IMG/VR virus record: IMGVR_UViG_3300017589_000168
Location: 1 to 64,000 of that record
Reading direction: 5' to 3' (one strand)
Source of the DNA: a virus
Lineage: Duplodnaviria; Caudoviricetes
Length of the DNA stretch: 64,000 nucleotides
Position numbers and translations under genes: made by a program. A model generated the notes under the pieces. The model was not told the origin of the DNA and searched no databases. It was given only the letters and a program-made list of their open reading frames with translations. Of this stretch, positions 1,077-12,333 are shown in pieces (the first letter of the stretch is position 1; each line of letters begins with the position of its first letter).

Positions 1077-2093
1077 ATGGCGATACCAAAACCCAAGGCT
1101 CCCTTAATCGATTTTGATGAAATGCTGGGTATAGAACCCCAGCAAGATGCCGCCCCTGCTCCTGTGCAGGGTGGCATCTTGGAAATGGATTTCAGTTTGA
1201 TGGAGTCCTTTCCAAATCACAGGTTCAAACTCTATGAAGGACAGCAGCTTGACGATATGGTGGATAGTATCCGCCAGTTTGGTATTCTGCTCCCCATTAT
1301 CCTGTGGTACACTGAGGACGGACGGTACATTATTCTCAGCGGACATAACCGTAAAAACGCCGCCCAGCTTGCCGGGTTTACAAAAGGCCCTGTCATCATC
1401 AGGGAAAATCTGACCTATGAAGATGCTGTCCTGATTGTAACAGAAACCAATTTGCGCCAACGTTCCTTTGGCGATATGAGCTATTCAGAACGTGCTTACT
1501 GTCTTGCCCAGCACTATGCGGCACTCAAATCACAAGGCAAGAGAAATGACCTTTTGGCAGAGATTGAAATGCTCTTGAACCCGCATGATACCGAGGAAAA
1601 TTCAACTTCGTCTGAGGTTCAGACGAAGTTGAGATCAGATGAAAAACTCGGACAAAATTACGGTCTTTCACGGGACAAGGTGGCAAAATACATCCGTATT
1701 TCAAACCTTATCGAACCTCTCATTTCCCGTGTTGATAGTGGTGAGATTGCCTTTCTTGCCGCTTATGACCTCTCTTTTGTTGAGGATGAAGCACAACAGC
1801 AGAGAATTGCCGACCTCATGGAGTCCGACAACTATAAGGTAGATACGAAAAAGGCAGAGTTGTTCCATAGCTACTATAAGGCTGGCAAGCTGACTGACAC
1901 CGCCATTGTACAAATTCTTTCAGGTGAGAAAACTCGCAAGCCCAAAAGCAATAAGCCACAGCCGGTCAAAATCAAGCCTGCGGTCATTTCCAAGTATTTC
2001 ACACCACAGCAGACCCAAAAGGAAATTGAGGAAGTCATTGATAAGGCTTTGGCACTGTACTTTGAAAATCAAGAATCGGAGGTGACAGCTTGA
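1077..2093 (+). CDS. parB: ParB family partition protein
   Basis: ParB N-domain (SIRQFGILLPII...LSGHNR...AA, ETNLRQR), HTH region; adjacent to parA. Confidence 0.9.
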   Translation: MAIPKPKAPLIDFDEMLGIEPQQDAAPAPVQGGILEMDFSLMESFPNHRFKLYEGQQLDDMVDSIRQFGILLPIILWYTEDGRYIILSGHNRKNAAQLAGFTKGPVIIRENLTYEDAVLIVTETNLRQRSFGDMSYSERAYCLAQHYAALKSQGKRNDLLAEIEMLLNPHDTEENSTSSEVQTKLRSDEKLGQNYGLSRDKVAKYIRISNLIEPLISRVDSGEIAFLAAYDLSFVEDEAQQQRIADLMESDNYKVDTKKAELFHSYYKAGKLTDTAIVQILSGEKTRKPKSNKPQPVKIKPAVISKYFTPQQTQKEIEEVIDKALALYFENQESEVTA

Positions 2094-5000
2094 GCAAGGC
2101 GACCATTCTTGCCGACCTATATAAAAAGTCGGTGCAGGAATACACGAAAAACCCTGTGGAGTGGAAAGGTCTGCTGTCCTGTGTGGCGAGGTATTATAAG
2201 CGTTCCTTTGACAATGCGGTACTCGTTTACGCACAGCGACCTGATGCAACTCAACTTGCCACCTTTGACGAATGGCATGACAAGCGAATTGACCGAAATA
2301 TCAATGCAGGGGCAAAGGGCATTGCGGTCATCGACATGACGAACCCCACGGCAAGTTTGAAGTATCTGTTTGATTTCATGGATACCAACGGCAGTGAACA
2401 GAGTTTCAAAAAAGTTATGAGTTACCTATGGGAGTTGGAGGATCAGTATAAACCCAGCGTGTTGGCGAGATTTCACGAGAAGAATAGCACTCCAACCTCC
2501 AGTATCGAAATGTGCCTGTATAAGCTGGTACAGCAACGGGTTCGTCAGGTTTTACCACAGTACATGGAAAATTTCAAGGTGCGTGACGAAAGCAGCGTAC
2601 TCTACGATGCTCCCATTGAAGCGGTAAAAGCGGAGTTTATGGAGCTTGTTACCGACAGCGTAGCTTATACCGTGTTTTGCAAATGTGGGCTTTCCACCGA
2701 GATGTTTGATGAACACACCTTTGAGAACATCAGCCACTTTAACAGCATGGATCTGTTTATGACTATGGGAAACTGTACGGTTTCCCTTGCAAGACCCATC
2801 CTGAGAGAAATCCATCAGGAAATCCAACAAATTAAAATCGAAAGGAGCCAAATTTATGAGAACCGAACCGTTAATGAACCTCAATTACCGGAAGAGCGAG
2901 GACGGTCTGCTCTACCCCGAACTGCAAATCTCGGAGAACGAGAAAATCGACCGGACACCGGTGGGCAGATTCGGGAACCTGTGGAAGAACTTCATGCTGG
3001 AGAACCACCCGCACCGCCTGTCGGAGCTGGTAGCACAGGGCAAAATCAACGAGATGATTTTGAAAGTGGACGAGGAAGCCGAGAGTCGCAAGGAACGGCT
3101 GATACAGGAACTTCTGACCGCACAGCCGATGCCGGACACCGAGGACACGATGGAGAGAGCCGCCCACATGGGCATGATAACCGACACAGCGGAGGAAATC
3201 GTAATCAACGAATTGGTACTGCAACCCCGATAACACAAAGAACAGAGCCGCCCACAGATGGTAAACAGCCGTCTGTGGGCGGCTTTTTTTCTGTCCCTCC
3301 TACATCGCCGCCTGCACCTGTTTCCGTGCAGGAAGCCCCTGAACAGGTTCCTGCACTGGATGAGGAAGAAATCTCCGACCTCATTGATGTGGTGCTGTGT
3401 GCTGATGATATTACCCCTGATACAAGGGAATGGACAGCGGAAATCCATAAATTCTTTGAGGGCGGACACAAGCAGACTACGAAAGCCAAAATCCTGAAAG
3501 CCTTTTATGGCAAGCTGGATACTGACTACATCACGGAAACCGGAGAATATTTATATCTCACCGCAGGCGATGATGGGCTGACTTTTGAAATCGAGGGTCA
3601 GCAATTCACCGAGGACTATGGCACGCTCGTCAGCCGGATTGACCGCTTGATTCTGACCGGGGCATATCCGTTTAGCTCCGCAGACACCGTGATTGACGAT
3701 TATGCCATCCCCGATGAACAGGAGGAAATGCAGGGCTTTACAGACGAGGACGAAAATAGTCCTGATGAACCGCTTGCGTCTACCGAGTTGTCTGAAACGG
3801 ACAGACAAAAAATCATTGACCAATACCTCCAGCATGGCAGCGGCACACAAGGCGGCAGGCAACGAATTTTTCAAGTTATGCTGTCCATGCCTGCCAAGAA
3901 GGATCGTATGTCGTTTATTAGGAAGGAATACAATTCCTACGGCTGTTACAGCAAATCCCCCAATGGCGACCAATGGCATTTGGAATCTACCCCCAAGGGG
4001 CTGACGATTGATTACCGGCTCGGTTCGCTGGAATTGCATGAAGTCCTTTCATGGAATCAGGTGGAAAGCGGTATCTCTGACCTGATCCGCCAAGAACGCT
4101 ATCTGGCGGAAAAGGATAAAACGGAGATGGAAGCCGAGGGGCAGACTGTGTACTTGCCAACTCCCGAAGTGTCAGAGCAGGAAGCTCCCGATAGGCAACT
4201 CAATTTATTTGATACCATCCCTGCCATGCAGGACAGCTATGAGGACGCCGCCGAGGACAGTAATGACGGTCTGATTGATGGAAATTCCATCATGCCGGTG
4301 CAACTGCCTTTTCAGGAGGGCGACCGAATTTATTATAACGACTGTGTATATGAAATCGTGAAATTTCTGCACGATGGGCGCACAGTTGAAATCGGGGATA
4401 TTGCACAGCTTAAAAATCTGAATAGCCTTAAAATTACCGAGCGTGTGCCGCTTTCTGCTATTGCGGACTGCAAACCGCTGAAAGACCATTACACAGATGG
4501 CGAGATTGCCACCATGGTAGTGGAAAGTGTCCAAAGCGGCGATTTCTCGGAAGAAACGCAGGCTGCTATTCAAGCCGCCGCCCTTGTCAACCAGTCCAAT
4601 GAGGAGTACAACAATGCCATCATGGACGATTTTTTTGCCCGTGCGTGGGGCGAGGGTTTCAATTACCGCTATTCCTCCGACCATCATCTTTACGATGGCG
4701 GTCCGAAAACTAAATTCAAAAACAACATTGCAGCCATTCGGCTTCTAAAGGAACTGAAAGCACAAGGGCGCCCAGCAACAGCGGAGGAACAGATCATCCT
4801 TGCCCGTTTTGTCGGCTGGGGTGGGCTTGCAAATGCCCTTACACCGGATAAAAGCGGATGGGAAACAGAATATGCGGAAATTAAAGAACTGCTGACAGAC
4901 GAGGAATTGCAGGCGGCACAGAAAAGCACCCTGACCTCCTATTACACGGAACAGAGCATCGTTAGCCACATCTATAAAGGGCTGGAGCGTATGGGGTTTC

Positions 5001-8000
5001 GGGGCGGCAATATCTTAGACCCCGCCCTTGGTACAGGCAACTTCTTTTCCGTACTGCCGGAGAGCATGGAGTCCTCCAAGCTCTACGGCTGTGAAATCGA
5101 CCCAATCCCCGGACAGATTGCAAAACACCTTTATCCTGATGCGGACATTCAGGTGATGGGCTTTGAAAAGACGGCTTTCCCTGACCATTTTTTCGATATG
5201 ATGGTGGGCAACGTGCCGTTTAACTCCATCAAGGTGGATGACCCTCGCTACAATAAGCATAATTTCCATATTCACGATTATTTTATCGCAAAATCACTGG
5301 ATAAGGTTCGTCCGGGCGGCATGATGGCGCTTATTACCTCCAAGTTTACGATGGATAAGGCAAATTCCAGTATGCGCCGTTACATTGCCGGAAAAGCCGA
5401 GCTGATTGGCGCAGTCCGTCTGCCAAACAATGCGTTCAAACAGGTTGCCGGAACCGAGGCCACCACAGACATTCTTTTTCTGAAAAAGCGGGAACGGGAA
5501 ATTGTGCCGGACGAGGAAAGCAGTCCTTGGCTGACCGTAGAGCAAGACGAAAACGGCATTCCCATGAACACCTATTTTATCGACCACCCGGAAATGGTGC
5601 TGGGTGAGATGGTGTTTGACGAGTCCATGTTCGGCAACGAAAAGGCCACCGCCTGCCACCCGATAGCCGGAGAGGACTTGAATGAACGGCTGGAGCGTGC
5701 CATTTCCTATCTGGACGGCGAATATACCGAGGCCACCTCTGAATATGAGGGTGAAAAAGAAGTGCTGCCAGAATCCATTCCTGCTGATCCCAATGTGCGC
5801 AATTTCAGCTATGGGCTGGTAGATGGTGAGCTATACTACCGTGAAAATTCTCGGATGTATAAGCAAAATATCACCGGCCGGAAAGCCGAGCGTATTCGTG
5901 GCATGGTGGAGGTTACGGCATCCATCCGCAGTCTGATTGACTTCCAAAACAGCGAATATGCAGACCTACATGAGCTGCCCACCATGGAATATGAAAAGCA
6001 GCTTCAGGAGCATATCGCCCATCTCAACCATGTTTATGATGGCTTTGTCAAAAAGCAGGGCTATCTCAATTCTTATGCCAATGTAATCGCATTTTCAAGG
6101 GATTCCAATGCCCCTTTGCTCCGTTCCATCGAGGCGGAGAAAAAAGACCAAAAGGATGTATGGGAAAAGACCGCTATCTTCTACAAAGCGACCATCAAGC
6201 CCAAGATTATGCTCAAGGCAGTGTTTTCGGCTGAGGAAGCCCTGATGGTTTCCCTCAATGTGAAGGGCAAGGTTGACCTTGCCTATATGTCCTGGCTCTA
6301 TCAGTATCCCGATCACCACAAGGCTACACCGGAGGAAATCATTGATGAGCTGGGGGATAAGATTTACCAAGACCCCGATGATTACACCGGCAACCCGCAC
6401 ACCGGCTGGAAAACCGCCGACGAGTATCTAAGCGGCTATGTCAAGGATAAGCTGGCGACGGCAATCTTGAAAGCAGAGGAAGAACCGGAACGGTTCAGCC
6501 GAAATGCAGAGGCATTGAAGCTGGTACAGCCGGTTCCCCTGACCCCACAGGACATCAGCTTTACCCTTGGTTCCACATGGATTCCAACGGAGATTTACCA
6601 GCAATTCATGTACGATACCTTCCAGACTACGCCCGGAAATCAAGTCGGTCGCTTTAGCATCTCCCTTGAGTTTTCCAAATACAGCGGCGCCTATCATATT
6701 ACCAATAAAAGTGCAGAAAGCAACTCTGTAACGGTCAACCAGTCCTACGGCACAGGACGGCTCAATGCTTACGAAATACTGGAAACCACACTAAACCTCC
6801 GTTCAGTGGAGGTCAAAGACCCGGTTGACTATATTGACCCGAATACCGGAGAGGAAAAAACGAAGTACGTCCTCAATAAAAAGGAAACCATCTTGGCTCG
6901 TGAAAAACAGGCGGAAATCAAGATGGCTTTTGAAAGCTGGCTGTTTGCCGACCCGGAGCGTGGGGCAAGCCTGACGAAGCTCTACAATGACCGTTTCAAT
7001 AACATCCGCCCCCGTGAATACAGCGGTGACACCCTGCTCATGCCGGATATGGCGGAGGGCATCAAGCTGCGCAAGCATCAGAGTGATGTAATCGCCCATG
7101 GGCTTTACAGTGACGGAAATCTGCTGATGGCGCACGAAGTTGGTGCTGGAAAAACCTACGCTGCTGTTGGCCTTGGCTATGAAATGAAACGGCTGGGTGC
7201 AGTCCATAAGCCCCTTTATGCCGTGCCAAATCACCTTGTAGGCGAATGGGCAGCTCACTATATGAAGATGTACCCCAACGCCAATATTTTGGTGGCCGAA
7301 AAAAAGGATTTTGAGCGAAAGAACCGCCGCCGCTTTGTCAGCAGGATTGCCACCGGTGAGCATGACGCCATCATCATGGGGCATAGCAGCTTTGAACTGA
7401 TTGGCTTATCCAGAGAGCGCCAGCTTGCGGCTATGGAATCGGAAATGGCGGCCATTACAGAGGCAATAGCGGAGGTAAAAGCCCGTGACGGCAAGGACTG
7501 GACACTCAAACAGATGCAGATTTTCAAGTCCAACCTCCAGTTTCGCTATGACAGGCTGTTCAACGCAGAGAAAAAGGACAGTGTTATCAACTTTGAGGAA
7601 TTGGGCGTGGACGCCCTGTTTGTGGACGAGGCCCATGCCTATAAAAACAATTTTTCCTACACCAAAATGCGTAACGTGGCCGGAGTAACCGGGGTCAGCA
7701 GCCAGCGCGCCATGGATATGCACCAAAAATGCCAGTATATCAATGACCTGAACAATGGCAAAGGTGTGGTTTACCTGACCGGCACTCCCATCTCCAACAC
7801 GATGGCAGAGTTGTATGTCCTGCAAAAGACCTTGCAGCCATGGGAGCTGGAAAAGCGTGGCCTGCTGATGTTTGACGCATGGGCAAGTACCTTTGGCGTG
7901 GTGGAGTCCTCATTGGAAATCAAACCGGAGGGCAACGGCTACCAGATGAAAAATCGTTTTGCACGGTTTCACAATTTGCCTGAGCTGATGGCCATGTTCC

Positions 8001-8713
8001 ACATGATTGCGGACATTAAAACCGCTGATATGCTGGACTTGCCTACTCCAAAGCTGAAAACCGGCGGTTCACAGGTTATCAAAACGGAATGTACCCCGGA
8101 GCAGAAACGCCTTGTAATGGAGTTGGGAGAACGGGCGGAGAAAATACGCAACGGCCAAGTGGATAGCTCCGAGGATAATTTCCTGAAGCTCACGCTGGAG
8201 GCTCGCCTGCTGTCCACTGATCCGAGAGCCATTGACCCGGATTTACCGGATGACCCCAATACAAAACTCAATGTCTGCGCACGGAAAGCGGCTGAAATCT
8301 ACCATGAAACCGCTGAGAACCGCTTGACACAGCTTATTTTCTGCGACCAAGGCACGCCCAAGGGTGACGGCAGCTTTAATTTTTACGAGGCTACCAAGGC
8401 GGTGCTGATTGCACAGGGGGTAAAGCCGGAGGAAATCGCCTTTATCCACGATGCCAAGACGGACGTACAGCGGGAGCAGCTTTTTGAAAAGGTGCGAACC
8501 GGTGAAATCCGCATCTTAATGGGCAGCACCGGAAAAATGGGCACCGGCATGAATGTTCAAAATAAGCTGGTGGCTCTCCATCATCTCGATGTGCCGTGGC
8601 GCCCCTCTGATCTCATTCAGCGCAATGGCCGCATTCTCCGTCAGGGCAATGACAACGAGGAAATTTCTATCTTCAACTACATCACAGAGAATACCTTTGA
8701 TGCGTACCTGTGG
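2090..8713 (+). CDS. Exon 1 of a giant polyvalent protein: ArdC-like N-domain, N6-adenine DNA methylase, SNF2-like helicase (DarB-like)
   Basis: LDPALGTGNFF and GNVPF methylase motifs; AHEVGAGKT, VDEAH, TGTPISN, QRNGRILRQGN helicase motifs; ends ...FDAYLW at the intron 5' boundary. Confidence 0.9.
2856..3233 (+). CDS. tnpV: TnpV-like protein nested in the +1 frame of the helicase gene
   Basis: 125-aa ORF with AAAGGAG SD 8 nt before ATG; LLYPEL...VGRFG...KVDEEAESR...AEEIV pattern resembles the TnpV family; terminator follows. Confidence 0.72.
   Translation: MRTEPLMNLNYRKSEDGLLYPELQISENEKIDRTPVGRFGNLWKNFMLENHPHRLSELVAQGKINEMILKVDEEAESRKERLIQELLTAQPMPDTEDTMERAAHMGMITDTAEEIVINELVLQPR
3247..3290 (+). 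terminator. Intrinsic terminator inside the helicase ORF, just after the nested ORF
   Basis: 15-bp stem GCCGCCCACAGATGG/CCGTCTGTGGGCGGC (one G-U), 7-nt loop, followed by T7. Confidence 0.75.
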
Positions 8714-11061
8714 GTGCGACATGAAGTCGCCTGATTTAACTGTCTGGCATTGTGACCAGACCAACTTTTCCGTAAGTTGAGCCTAATATCAACTGCATTG
8801 CTGGTAACGGCGGTGTGGTAAGCTGATATGAAAATGTAGCCCTATTTGGAGGCGAAGCCGTGAGGCAGAGCCGAAACTGTTAGCACAATACGGTTAGGGA
8901 GCAGGCTTGATAGTATGGTTAACGTAAGTGAACTACTGATAAACGTCGTTAAGGCGAACAGGTCAAAGTTGCTGATAGACCTGAACCAAAATGGTATGCA
9001 GTCGGATAATCCTTTCCATAGTGGGATTACACGGACACAAGACTGCCGGCGGAGAGGTAGAACCTAAACTATCATTGTTAATCAGGTGGAACATGGTAAG
9101 CCCGTACTGTTGCTTTTAGCAAAGCAGACTGTAAGGAATGCCGATAACAGTGCGGGTACAGGAAAACGGAAAAAGCGAATGCCATTTTGTAATGAGATGG
9201 ATAGGAGTTTCAATGTTACTCCACACGAAAGTGGGCAGACTTCCGTTCGGTTTCTAATCACAAGATAATTTACAGAATTTTGAAAGGAGAAAGCAAATGA
9301 ACATGAAAATGTGTGCTACTTCTGACGTGGCTATGCAATGGGAAAGCATTGACTGGAACAAAGCCGACCGCTACGTTAAAAACCTGCAAATGCGTATTGT
9401 GAAAGCATTTCAGGAGGGCAAGAAAAACAAAGTGAAATCACTGCAGCACTTGCTCACTACCTCTTTTTATGCTAAAGCATTGGCAGTAAAAAGAGTCACA
9501 GAAAATCAAGGCAAAAAGACAGCAGGGGTTGACGGAGAAATCTGGACAACACCAAAGGACAAATATCAGGCAATAGAAAGGTTACAACGCAGAGGTTACA
9601 ACCCAATGCCGTTAAAAAGGGTATATATCCCCAAGAAAAATGGCAAGAAAAGACCTTTGAGCATTCCGACCATGACAGACAGAGCCATGCAGACTTTATA
9701 TAAGTTTGCATTAGAGCCGATTGCAGAAACCACCGCCGACCCCAACTCTTATGGGTTTCGAGCGAAAAGATGTACGCAAGACGCTATTGAACAATGCTTT
9801 ACCAGTCTGAATAAAGGTAAATCTCCAAAATGGGTGCTTGAGGGAGATATAAAGGGTTGCTTTGACAACATTAGGCACGAATGGATACTGGAACACATCC
9901 CTATGGACAAGGAAATACTGCAAAAATGGCTCAAATGCGGATATATTGAAACCAAGAAACTATTTCCGACAGAGTTCGGAAGTCCGCAGGGTTCGCCGAT
10001 TTCACCGACTATCAGCAACATGGTACTTGATGGCTTGGAAAAGGTAATCAAGAATAAATACCACAAGCATAAGGTGAATGGAAAGGCATATTTTCCAAAG
10101 GTTAATTTTGTCCGTTACGCTGATGACTTTATCGTCACAGGAGAAAGCAGAGAAATTCTTGAAAACGGTGTAAAGCCCATTATCATTGAGTTTCTCGCTG
10201 AAAGAGGTTTGGAATTGTCAGAGGAAAAGACACTGATTACCCACATCAATGACGGTTTCGACTTCTTAGGCTGTAATGTCAGGATGTATGGAAATAAACT
10301 CTTGACCAAGCCCTCTAAGAAAAACTTTGAAGCGATAGTCAGAAAAATCAGGGATGTCATCAAAAGTAACCAGTCAGCAAAGCAGGACTTCTTGATTAGA
10401 AAGCTCAATCCTATCATTCGGGGTTGGGTAAATTATCAGAAGTATAACGTATCTGCACAAGCCTTTGAAAAGCTTGATTATGAAATTTGGCAATGCCTGT
10501 GGCAATGGTGCAAAAGACGGCACCCCAAGAAAAGTCGGAAATGGATTGCAAAGAAATATTTCCACACAATCGGAAATCGGACATGGACTTTTAGCGTTCC
10601 GACTGACGGTAAAATGGAAAATGGCGAAGATTACTATATCCGCTTGATTTACGCAACAGATACAGACATCAAGAGATTTACAAAAATTAAAGCGGACGCA
10701 AATCCATTCGATGAAAATTGGCAGTTGTATTTTGAAGAAAGAGCCGACAAGCAGATGAGGAATGAAATCAAGGGAAGAACCATCATAAATAGGCTGTACA
10801 AAGCCCAACAGGGTTGTTGCAGTCATTGTGGCGGTAAAATCACTCTTGAAACAGATTTCCAAATCCACCAAGTTGGTAATGGAAAGAATATGACAAAAAG
10901 TCTTGTACACCCTGAGTGCCACCAAAAACTCCATGCCTTGGCAAAATGTGAAATGCTGGCTCTCGAAGGAGAGTTTATAGAAGCTTGAGCCGTGTGAGGG
11001 GAAACTCTCATGCACGGTTCTTAGGGGGGAAGGTGGCAGTAATGCCGCCGACCTACCCGAC
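8714..11061 (+). mobile_element. Group II intron (IIB, CL1-like) inserted in phase 0 in the helicase gene
   Basis: Starts GTGCG; domain V GAGCCGTGTGAGGGGAAACTCTCATGCACGGTTC at 10987-11020; ends ...CCCGAC; removal restores FDAYLW|QILEQKQRYISQIMT; EBS1/EBS2 match the exon. Confidence 0.95.
9297..10988 (+). CDS. ltrA: Group II intron reverse transcriptase/maturase with a degenerate HNH domain
   Basis: RVYIPKKNGKKRPL, EGDIKGCFD, PQGSPISP, RYADDF, GFDFLG; C-terminal CSHC...HPECH. Confidence 0.95.
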   Translation: MNMKMCATSDVAMQWESIDWNKADRYVKNLQMRIVKAFQEGKKNKVKSLQHLLTTSFYAKALAVKRVTENQGKKTAGVDGEIWTTPKDKYQAIERLQRRGYNPMPLKRVYIPKKNGKKRPLSIPTMTDRAMQTLYKFALEPIAETTADPNSYGFRAKRCTQDAIEQCFTSLNKGKSPKWVLEGDIKGCFDNIRHEWILEHIPMDKEILQKWLKCGYIETKKLFPTEFGSPQGSPISPTISNMVLDGLEKVIKNKYHKHKVNGKAYFPKVNFVRYADDFIVTGESREILENGVKPIIIEFLAERGLELSEEKTLITHINDGFDFLGCNVRMYGNKLLTKPSKKNFEAIVRKIRDVIKSNQSAKQDFLIRKLNPIIRGWVNYQKYNVSAQAFEKLDYEIWQCLWQWCKRRHPKKSRKWIAKKYFHTIGNRTWTFSVPTDGKMENGEDYYIRLIYATDTDIKRFTKIKADANPFDENWQLYFEERADKQMRNEIKGRTIINRLYKAQQGCCSHCGGKITLETDFQIHQVGNGKNMTKSLVHPECHQKLHALAKCEMLALEGEFIEA

Positions 11062-12333
11062 CAGATTTTAGAGCAGAAACAGCGGTATATCAGTCAGATT
11101 ATGACCGGTCGCTCTACCCTCAGAACCTGTGAGGATGTAGATAGCACTATGCTCCAGTATGCCGAATTTAAGGCCCTTGCAACCTCCGACCCAAGAATTA
11201 AGGAGAAGATGGAAACGGATAACGAGATCAGCCGCCTGACGGTGCTGAAATCCGCATGGCAGAGCCAGCGCAACGACCTTCAGTACAGGATTGGAAAACA
11301 CTATCCAAGCCAGATTGCCGCCACCGAGCGTAAAATAGCAGGGATGGAAGCTGACCTTTCTACCTACACAGGAAATAAGCCGGCCGAGTTTCAAATGACT
11401 ATTGACGGCAGGCTCCATGATGAGCGAACGAAGGCTGCCGAACATTTCATGGTTCGTTCCCGCAAGCTGGGACGAAACACCGGGGACACCCTTGATGTGG
11501 GCAGCTATGCAGGCTTTCCAGTCCGGTTGATACGGCGTATGGGAGATGGAGTTGGCATCCAGCTATGCGGCAAATGCACCTATACTACAGATTTGGGCGA
11601 GTCGGAGCTGGGAAACATTACCCGTATTGAAAATCTTGCGGAACGCATTTCATCAGAACTGGAAGTCGCCAAGAACGACCTTGCGGATTTGCACCGCCAG
11701 CTTGATGCGGCGAAGCTGGAGAGTGAAAAACCCTTTGCCGGTGAAGAAAAATTGGTGCAGTTACAGAGAAAAAAAGTTGAGCTTGACCTTGCCTTAGAAT
11801 TTAAGGATACCCCTGATCCTGTTTTAGAGCCGGACGAGGACAATGAGAATGTTATGAATTATGAGCCGGACGGGGAAGCAGATGCACCAATCAGAACGGC
11901 TCCCCCCTCTGCACACCTCACGCTGGAACAGCGGCTGTATCAGAAGCTGGCGGTTTTCGCAAGCCCCATCCTTGAGGGGGACGCCTATTACATGAAGTTG
12001 AAAAGTGAAGGATTTGAGGATTTGGTGCTGGAGGCCATTGGTGGGGATGAATACAGTATCGCCCATTATTACAGACAAAATGGTGATTCCATGCGTGACC
12101 CTGAGATTACCTTTACCATTGATAGACAGACCTGTTCCATTCACCCTACATCGTTCTTACAGGACGATATAGGGCTTTTTTATGATACGGACAGCGTACC
12201 GCCATCAAGGGTGCGTGATTTGAAGGATTTCATGTCACAGTGGTTTACCAACATCAAGGAGCAGGGGTTTGAGCCTGAAAAGGTATCCGTATATTCATCG
12301 GAAAATGAAGATGAAAGCGAATTTGAAAGATAG
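11062..12333 (+). CDS. Exon 2 of the helicase/methylase gene (spliced product about 2631 aa)
   Basis: In frame from CAG at 11062 (QILEQKQ...); coiled-coil region and C-terminal domain; ends ESEFER. Confidence 0.88.
   Translation, partial: QILEQKQRYISQIMTGRSTLRTCEDVDSTMLQYAEFKALATSDPRIKEKMETDNEISRLTVLKSAWQSQRNDLQYRIGKHYPSQIAATERKIAGMEADLSTYTGNKPAEFQMTIDGRLHDERTKAAEHFMVRSRKLGRNTGDTLDVGSYAGFPVRLIRRMGDGVGIQLCGKCTYTTDLGESELGNITRIENLAERISSELEVAKNDLADLHRQLDAAKLESEKPFAGEEKLVQLQRKKVELDLALEFKDTPDPVLEPDEDNENVMNYEPDGEADAPIRTAPPSAHLTLEQRLYQKLAVFASPILEGDAYYMKLKSEGFEDLVLEAIGGDEYSIAHYYRQNGDSMRDPEITFTIDRQTCSIHPTSFLQDDIGLFYDTDSVPPSRVRDLKDFMSQWFTNIKEQGFEPEKVSVYSSENEDESEFER

Follow-up and report, generated by a model that had tools for sequence, protein, structure and literature searches.

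A tnpV gene nested in a giant open reading frame

The sequence analyzed here is a stretch of 64,000 nucleotides (positions 1 to 64,000 of IMG/VR record IMGVR_UViG_3300017589_000168, filed as a virus of the Caudoviricetes), called the window in the following, and all coordinates are window positions on the + strand. At 2090-8734 the window holds a giant open reading frame (ORF) for a protein with an ArdC-like N-terminal domain, a methylase and an SNF2 helicase. Wholly within this ORF lies a gene of the tnpV family in the +1 frame, a giant codon beginning 1 nt before each tnpV codon, and we present comparative evidence that both frames are probably in use. The frame of the ORF 2090-8734 is referred to as the giant frame, SD stands for Shine-Dalgarno sequence and dN/dS for the ratio of nonsynonymous to synonymous substitution rates. 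The features on which the argument is built are the following:

2078-2082 and 2090, + strand: start of the giant gene, SD GGAGG and TTG codon, read from the sequence; the start overlaps the parB stop codon
2090-8734, + strand: giant ORF, 2214 codons, exon 1 of the giant gene, which continues past a group II intron
2090-2854, + strand: ArdC-like N-terminal domain, 255 aa (structure model, dN/dS 0.13)
2841-2848, + strand: SD of tnpV, GAAAGGAG, 7 nt ahead of ATG 2856
2855-3290, + strand: linker of the giant frame, aa 256-400, overprinting tnpV and the hairpin (composition, dN/dS, stop counts)
2856-3233, + strand: tnpV, 125 codons, +1 frame, wholly within the giant ORF (Pfam PF14198)
3244-3293, + strand: terminator-like hairpin (3244-3286) with a run of seven T, 15-19 bp stem, inside the giant ORF

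An initial annotation of this DNA, made from its letters without database searches, had proposed a 125-codon ORF with its own SD nested in the +1 frame of the giant gene, and this ORF is indeed present at 2856-3233 inside 2090-8734. The TnpV-like identity that it had suggested is borne out by a hidden Markov model (HMM) search, in which the protein matched Pfam family PF14198 with an E-value of 4.8e-22 and 78.5 bits (cut-off 27) over profile positions 4-111 of 111; a match in NCBIfam was not obtained. With 125 aa and a location on a mobile genetic element, the protein also has the size and the context of a TnpV family member. Its AlphaFold model, with a predicted local distance difference test (pLDDT) score of 82.6, consists of a beta-hairpin plus four helices, and comparisons of the fold returned only generic helical matches (Foldseek against the PDB, best E 0.83; VIA-align, best Z 6.5). 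An Xis-like role of TnpV in excision is no more than a postulate in PMC3158075.

In the giant frame the same DNA encodes a linker of low complexity, again as initially annotated: 79% of aa 256-400 are G, R, E, D, P, S, T, Q or N and 10% are hydrophobic, compared to 51% and 33%, respectively, in the rest of the protein.

The SD of tnpV, which also encodes the conserved Glu-Arg closing the ArdC-like domain in the N-terminal alignment, is kept in 29/29 close loci and in 16/17 and 10/10 distant nested loci, at a spacing of 6-9 nt from a conserved ATG. A conserved slippery site between SD and ATG was considered and discarded, as the bases vary among relatives and there is no in-frame slippery heptamer. 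Frameshifting can be stimulated by an SD-like sequence located shortly before the site, as in prfB and dnaX, and no stop interrupts the tnpV frame over the 17 codons preceding its ATG, both of which would suit a programmed frameshift that joins the ArdC-like domain to TnpV and gives a fusion protein. However, the distance between SD and conserved ATG is typical of initiation and the standalone TnpV proteins begin at the corresponding residue, and we regard the probability of such a fusion as negligible.

Conservation of the nested arrangement

When genomes were searched with the N-terminal domain, 34 loci from Clostridia genomes were obtained, 29 of which hold a full tnpV and form the close set. 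In every one of these 29 loci, the location and the offset of tnpV are the same, its SD, ATG and stop codon are present, and the giant frame has no stops across tnpV, while the other four frames contain totals of 45-346 stops. Also, the downstream domains are in the frame of the N-terminal domain in all relatives despite a variable linker length.

A tblastn search of plasmids with TnpV revealed copies with 26-39% identity in plasmids of Virgibacillus, C. botulinum, C. perfringens and B. cereus. Each of these copies lies under one annotated 'SNF2-related' or 'helicase-related' coding sequence (CDS), about 240 codons from the CDS start and always at offset +1, and each has its own SD, ATG and stop codon. 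The giant frames of the plasmids are open across tnpV despite a GC content of 32-40%; in the AT-rich plasmid loci L036-L039 this is the GC content of the tnpV overlap.

In a survey with the Pfam TnpV model, 111 of 300 Clostridia genomes matched and 70 loci were examined, among which tnpV was nested in 21, plus one further locus (L097) where it is nested with a single stop in the giant frame. Across the relatives, the nested gene occupies the same frame, about 250-340 codons into the giant gene and behind the ArdC-like domain. Rather than being interrupted in most homologues, an outcome that would have spoken against the initial annotation, the nested frame is intact in the 29 close loci and in about 30 distant homologues, about 60 relatives across Bacillota having been compared in all. 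Every nested tnpV has the ArdC-like domain encoded ahead of it and none of the standalone genes does; the latter genes are found after a TnpX-like large serine recombinase gene or in Tn916-like elements beside a tet(M)-like gene.

Stop codon avoidance and constraint in the two frames

Synonymous resampling of the window sequence alone gave a chance of about 0.02-0.04 for an open giant frame. In the GC-rich close family the chance of an open frame amounts to 0.02-0.14 per gene, and the close family alone would therefore be only suggestive. In the case of the distant loci, synonymous resampling with the codon usage of the flanks produced an open frame in at most 1e-4 of the trials for 7/10 loci. 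Over the relatives as a whole, the openness of the giant frame is overwhelmingly non-random.

As a natural control, 31 unique nested tnpV genes (from survey, handle and plasmid loci) were compared with 48 unique standalone ones. Clearly, the two groups differ in the giant frame or its equivalent, which has no stop in 30/31 nested genes, whereas each of the 48 standalone genes has 2-23. The same is seen at the level of codon choice. In nested tnpV genes a codon ending in T stands before AA, AG or GA, where it makes a stop in the giant frame, in 1 of 803 cases, compared to 359 of 1632 (22%) in harmless contexts, and in standalone genes the respective counts are 360 of 1235 and 1034 of 2551. This avoidance in the nested genes indicates selection against giant-frame stops, implying that the giant frame is translated.

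With regard to the amino acid sequences, dN/dS in the overlap is 0.15 for the tnpV frame and 1.84 for the giant frame, the latter being like the off-frame controls (1.1-1.4); in the ArdC-like domain, dN/dS of the giant frame is 0.13. The giant frame in the overlap is therefore an unconstrained linker that needs only to be open and to keep the frame. In view of the dN/dS of 0.15 and the model pLDDT of 82.6, TnpV is a conserved folded protein. As judged from these sequence comparisons, both frames are maintained by selection, and the proposal of the initial annotation that this is real dual coding, for which it had named stop avoidance and constraint in both frames as checks, is upheld by the codon counts (1/803 against 22%), by the 2-23 stops of the standalone controls and by the two dN/dS values.

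These data bear on two other explanations of the locus. If the giant frame alone were translated and the TnpV-like frame were a silent relic of a captured gene, one would understand why RefSeq plasmids carry an annotation for the giant CDS only, and TnpV is known here from sequence alone. A relic would have decayed, though, and what is found is a dN/dS of 0.15 over a divergence of about 85% at the amino acid level, with SD, ATG and stop codon conserved and the giant frame lacking amino acid constraint in the overlap, so we consider a silent relic extremely unlikely.

According to the other explanation, the locus consists of three separate genes, for the ArdC-like protein, TnpV and a methylase-helicase starting after the hairpin, and the open frame has arisen by chance from base composition. 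In two NCBI records tnpV is called together with a giant gene whose start codon is a GTG in the hairpin, the terminator would lie exactly between the second and the third gene, and the chance of 0.02-0.14 per gene for an open frame in the GC-rich family is not tiny. However, the ArdC-like ORF would then lack a stop codon in all but one of about 60 loci, the frame is open even in AT-rich plasmids where the chance falls below 1e-4, and standalone tnpV genes are always stopped in the giant-equivalent frame. The downstream part keeps to this frame in every case, with no conserved SD and start codon after the hairpin, and a conserved domain of 255 aa (dN/dS 0.13, own SD) would be left uncalled. An arrangement of three separate genes is therefore very unlikely.

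A terminator-like hairpin follows tnpV

The terminator noticed by the initial annotation after the tnpV stop codon was found as a hairpin with a run of seven T starting 10-14 nt downstream. It has the form of an intrinsic terminator, a GC-rich stem-loop followed by a U-run, and a folding energy of -39.7 kcal/mol, with z -8.7 compared to shuffles; its T-run corresponds to Phe-Phe in the giant frame. Among 27 close loci, 97.8% of the cells of the stem alignment are paired and 7/15 pairs are changed on both sides, a covariation that was matched by 0/500 shuffles and that no slid register comes close to. When hairpins of -8 kcal/mol or better with a T-run were counted within 140 nt of the tnpV stop codon, they were present at 24/30 nested loci, compared to 3/30 control windows in the same ORFs and 15/49 standalone genes.

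RNA data were available as assembled contigs, which show that the region is transcribed in relatives but reveal neither true 3' ends nor expression levels; stretches without cover (for example X16 at 3173-5460, and X7 and X8 beyond 3600) cannot be taken to mean that RNA is absent. Two RNA-seq runs from one study yielded contigs of depth 16-20 that extend from parA or parB to 3228 and 3252, with only pieces of depth 2-4 beyond, and in another RNA study the contigs covered 1351-3118 and resumed at 5553. At most, these contigs hint weakly at termination of many transcripts at the hairpin.

The presence of the hairpin within an open frame at 24/30 nested loci, and after only 15/49 standalone genes, would also be expected if the giant frame were kept open mainly to carry a ribosome through the terminator, in a pyrBI-type attenuation where the linkage of the domains is secondary and the linker might, for example, later be cleaved. 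A linker without sequence constraint and the stop of tnpV-frame ribosomes ahead of the hairpin fit such a role as well. On the other hand, 6/30 nested loci keep the frame open without a recognizable terminator, and transcription-translation coupling is reportedly weak in Bacillus subtilis. We consider it improbable that this is the main reason for the open frame; in any case, it is a refinement of dual coding and not an alternative to it.

Proposed reading of the locus

Taking the comparisons of codons, substitutions and signals together, we consider true dual coding very probable, that is, one mRNA region would be read in two frames, one for the giant protein with ArdC-like, methylase and helicase parts and one for TnpV. 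In frame 0, ribosomes starting at TTG 2090, coupled to parB, would make the ArdC-like domain and then cross a disordered linker of about 145 residues into the methylase/SNF2-helicase body, giving a polyvalent protein of about 2,630 aa. The internal SD and ATG (2841-2858) would serve a separate set of ribosomes, which would produce the folded TnpV of 125 aa in frame +1. As the sequence comparisons show, selection acts on the amino acid sequence of TnpV, and in the giant frame it demands only that there is no stop and that the frame is kept.

The hairpin and U-run located 10-80 nt after the tnpV stop codon would be an intragenic intrinsic terminator that ends most transcripts. The default transcript might thus comprise parA, parB, the ArdC-like part and tnpV, so that TnpV and the partition proteins would be made by default. 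The costly full-length giant protein would need read-through, either by a closely following giant-frame ribosome that melts the hairpin or by an antiterminator encoded by the element.

Several observations weigh against this reading of the locus or against parts of it. In locus L097 (G115:C52, about 1533, minus strand) a single TGA interrupts the giant frame, which can therefore be lost. This TGA is made by a CCT codon, synonymous for tnpV, before GAC, and either L097 has lost the giant frame naturally while its tnpV is intact, or the TGA is a sequencing error. At 6/30 nested loci a recognizable hairpin plus T-run is missing, the RNA evidence consists of assembled contigs, and RNA run X13 covers both sides of the hairpin. 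If termination were efficient, giant-frame ribosomes would run off the end of a short message that has no stop codon, which looks wasteful and is unexplained. A promoter scan found no sigma-70-like promoter just upstream of tnpV, which therefore depends on transcription of the operon. Translation of either product is deduced from comparative sequence analysis. Finally, our suggestion that TnpV acts together with the giant protein or in the establishment of the element, made because TnpV always accompanies the ArdC-like domain, is guesswork.

An extended version of this proposal, to which we assign a rather low probability, holds that the locus works as a frame-dependent switch between a short 'maintenance' transcript for ParA, ParB and TnpV and the anti-restriction giant protein, and, in addition, that nesting is ancestral for much of the TnpV family, the standalone genes of the Tn4451 type being escapes. 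Read-through would then occur only with a giant-frame ribosome or an antiterminator behind the polymerase, as ribosomes in the tnpV frame would stop just short of the hairpin.

Annotation and comparison with known systems

In agreement with the expectation that annotation pipelines mishandle such a locus, RefSeq plasmids list only the giant CDS over tnpV, and other records contain tnpV plus a truncated giant gene from which the N-terminal domain has been dropped. In Anoxybacterium hadale (L076, CP042469, 8238-9420), tnpV is called and the giant gene starts at 9420, a GTG that by alignment corresponds to one in the hairpin of the window, and in Caproicibacter fermentans (L078, CP060286, 8214-9504), tnpV is called and the giant gene starts after it. 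In both cases the conserved ArdC-like domain is unannotated or lies under a spurious gene on the opposite strand. In a large protein collection, most TnpV proteins of the nested subfamily come from short contigs, and we suspect that these tnpV calls arise when contig ends cut the giant ORF. As gene callers thus hide TnpV or truncate the giant protein, with loss of the ArdC-like domain, protein databases and domain architectures are systematically wrong for this large family.

The giant protein is like the polyvalent proteins of conjugative elements described by Iyer et al. (2017; PMC5512222) in having an ArdC-like N-terminus followed by a methylase and an SNF2 helicase on a conjugative element; TnpV and overlapping genes go unmentioned in that article. 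Nesting of tnpV is not reported in the titles and abstracts of the TnpV literature or in the TnpV passages of PMC3158075, PMC3845652 and PMC5512222. The nested protein belongs, by HMM match and alignment, to the same family (PF14198) as TnpV of Tn4451 and Tn4453, and like these it is always found on mobile elements. In contrast, tnpV of the Tn4451/Tn4453 type is standalone, located by a large serine recombinase gene or in Tn916-like elements, and has 2-23 stops in the frame equivalent to the giant one.

Complete genes inside other genes have been described in well-studied systems. In phage lambda, Rz1 has its own start and lies wholly inside Rz on the same strand in the +1 frame, both products being functional, and tnpV of the window is likewise wholly nested, on the same strand and in the +1 frame, with its own start. 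However, Rz1 is a small gene of restricted lineage whose product binds that of the host gene, whereas tnpV belongs to an old, widespread family that also occurs standalone, its host frame is a linker and it is followed by a terminator. Similarly, comS of Bacillus subtilis, which has 46 codons and lies out of frame in srfA-B, is a small out-of-frame gene in a giant multidomain gene of Bacillota, with a shared transcript. While comS is confined to close relatives, tnpV has 110-125 codons, is conserved across Bacilli and Clostridia and is paired with an intragenic terminator. In leader attenuation of the pyrBI type an ORF runs through an intrinsic terminator. By analogy, in the window a translated frame would run through a hairpin and U-run, and a ribosome could decide on termination. 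There, however, the frame belongs to a gene of 2,600 codons instead of a leader peptide, and a second frame stops shortly ahead of the hairpin.

Long overlapping genes supported by evolutionary evidence are rare and disputed in bacteria. Many conjugative plasmids and integrative and conjugative elements (ICEs) of both Bacilli and Clostridia have conserved the overlap of about 375 nt between tnpV and the giant gene, and the standalone tnpV genes provide a natural negative control. The route to this overlap appears to be an unusual one, as two genes were apparently fused by reading through a third. Also, a conserved terminator inside an ORF of 2,600 codons would offer a tractable model for the interplay of translation and termination in mobile elements of Gram-positive bacteria.

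Age and history of the overlap

The distances among the TnpV proteins and those among the N-terminal domains are strongly correlated (Mantel r 0.865; 0/2000 permutations as high), and the divergence of TnpV and of the ArdC-like domain each reaches about 85% amino acid difference. From this co-divergence it follows that the pair is old and inherited as a unit. The overlap would likely have originated when an ArdC-like gene and a methylase-helicase gene were fused by way of a tnpV cassette lying between them, or in an equally old event.

In an unrooted tree of TnpV, nested forms are present in both deep clades and a standalone crown group lies inside one of them. A single origin of nesting was considered and set aside: the tree needs at least four changes between nested and standalone states, and in the absence of a reliable root the direction of change is left open. 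In locus L042 of Kineothrix alysoides, a close homologue of the nested tnpV stands by itself and has stops in the giant-equivalent frame; it sits between a HepT-like gene and a gene for a class II tRNA synthetase and is an orphan copy that left the giant gene.

Operon, giant gene and element

The giant gene belongs to a tightly packed + strand operon, with parA and parB upstream, and its full coding region extends beyond the ORF 2090-8734. The remaining features are:

261-1073, + strand: parA (Pfam AAA_31/CbiA)
1077-2093, + strand: parB (Pfam ParB_N/HTH_ParB), stop codon TGA at 2091-2093
3291-8734, + strand: remainder of exon 1, with a methyltransferase at about aa 975-1108 and SNF2/ResIII/Helicase_C at aa 1658-2186 (Pfam)
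8761-11061, + strand: group II intron (Rfam RF02012 and RF00029, matches at 8761-8901 and 10985-11061)
9297-10988, + strand: reverse transcriptase/maturase ORF inside the intron (Pfam RVT_1, RVT_N, GIIM)
11066-12333, + strand: exon 2 of the giant gene, DUF6908 (Pfam)

The giant gene has a strong SD of its own, 7 nt from TTG 2090, and the ArdC-like domain is conserved from this TTG onward in all relatives. Searches of the 255-aa domain gave no usable match in Pfam (E up to 1) or in NCBIfam. Its AlphaFold model has a pLDDT of 91.5, and the top PDB match of the model is ArdC of R388 (6i89; E 4e-3, probability 1.0), with a template modeling (TM) score of only 0.44. With several unrelated domains (methyltransferase, SNF2, ResIII and Helicase_C, and DUF6908 in exon 2) and an ArdC-like N-terminus, albeit one recognized by a weak structural match, the giant protein has the characteristics of a polyvalent protein. 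The giant ORF ends at 8734 because the group II intron interrupts the gene near the C-terminus of the helicase. In the uninterrupted relative L076, DUF6908 is found at the C-terminus of the giant protein. As the tail with DUF6908 is encoded after the intron in the window, the full-length protein needs splicing.

The region 23038-50308 contains genes for a MobL relaxase, a type IV (T4) coupling protein, VirB11-like and VirB4/TraG-like ATPases and a C5 DNA methylase. The relaxase, coupling protein and VirB ATPases indicate that this DNA is a conjugative element, though filed as a virus record, and its gene content resembles that of a conjugative plasmid or ICE more than that of a phage.

Some relatives depart from the common arrangement. 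L004 has an early stop in the ArdC-like domain (4340), and from the 3' arm of its hairpin (5190 onward) it no longer resembles the family, as if DNA had been inserted or rearranged precisely at the terminator. In L030, L031 and L032 the ArdC-like domain is cut at about residues 175-208, and no tnpV follows.

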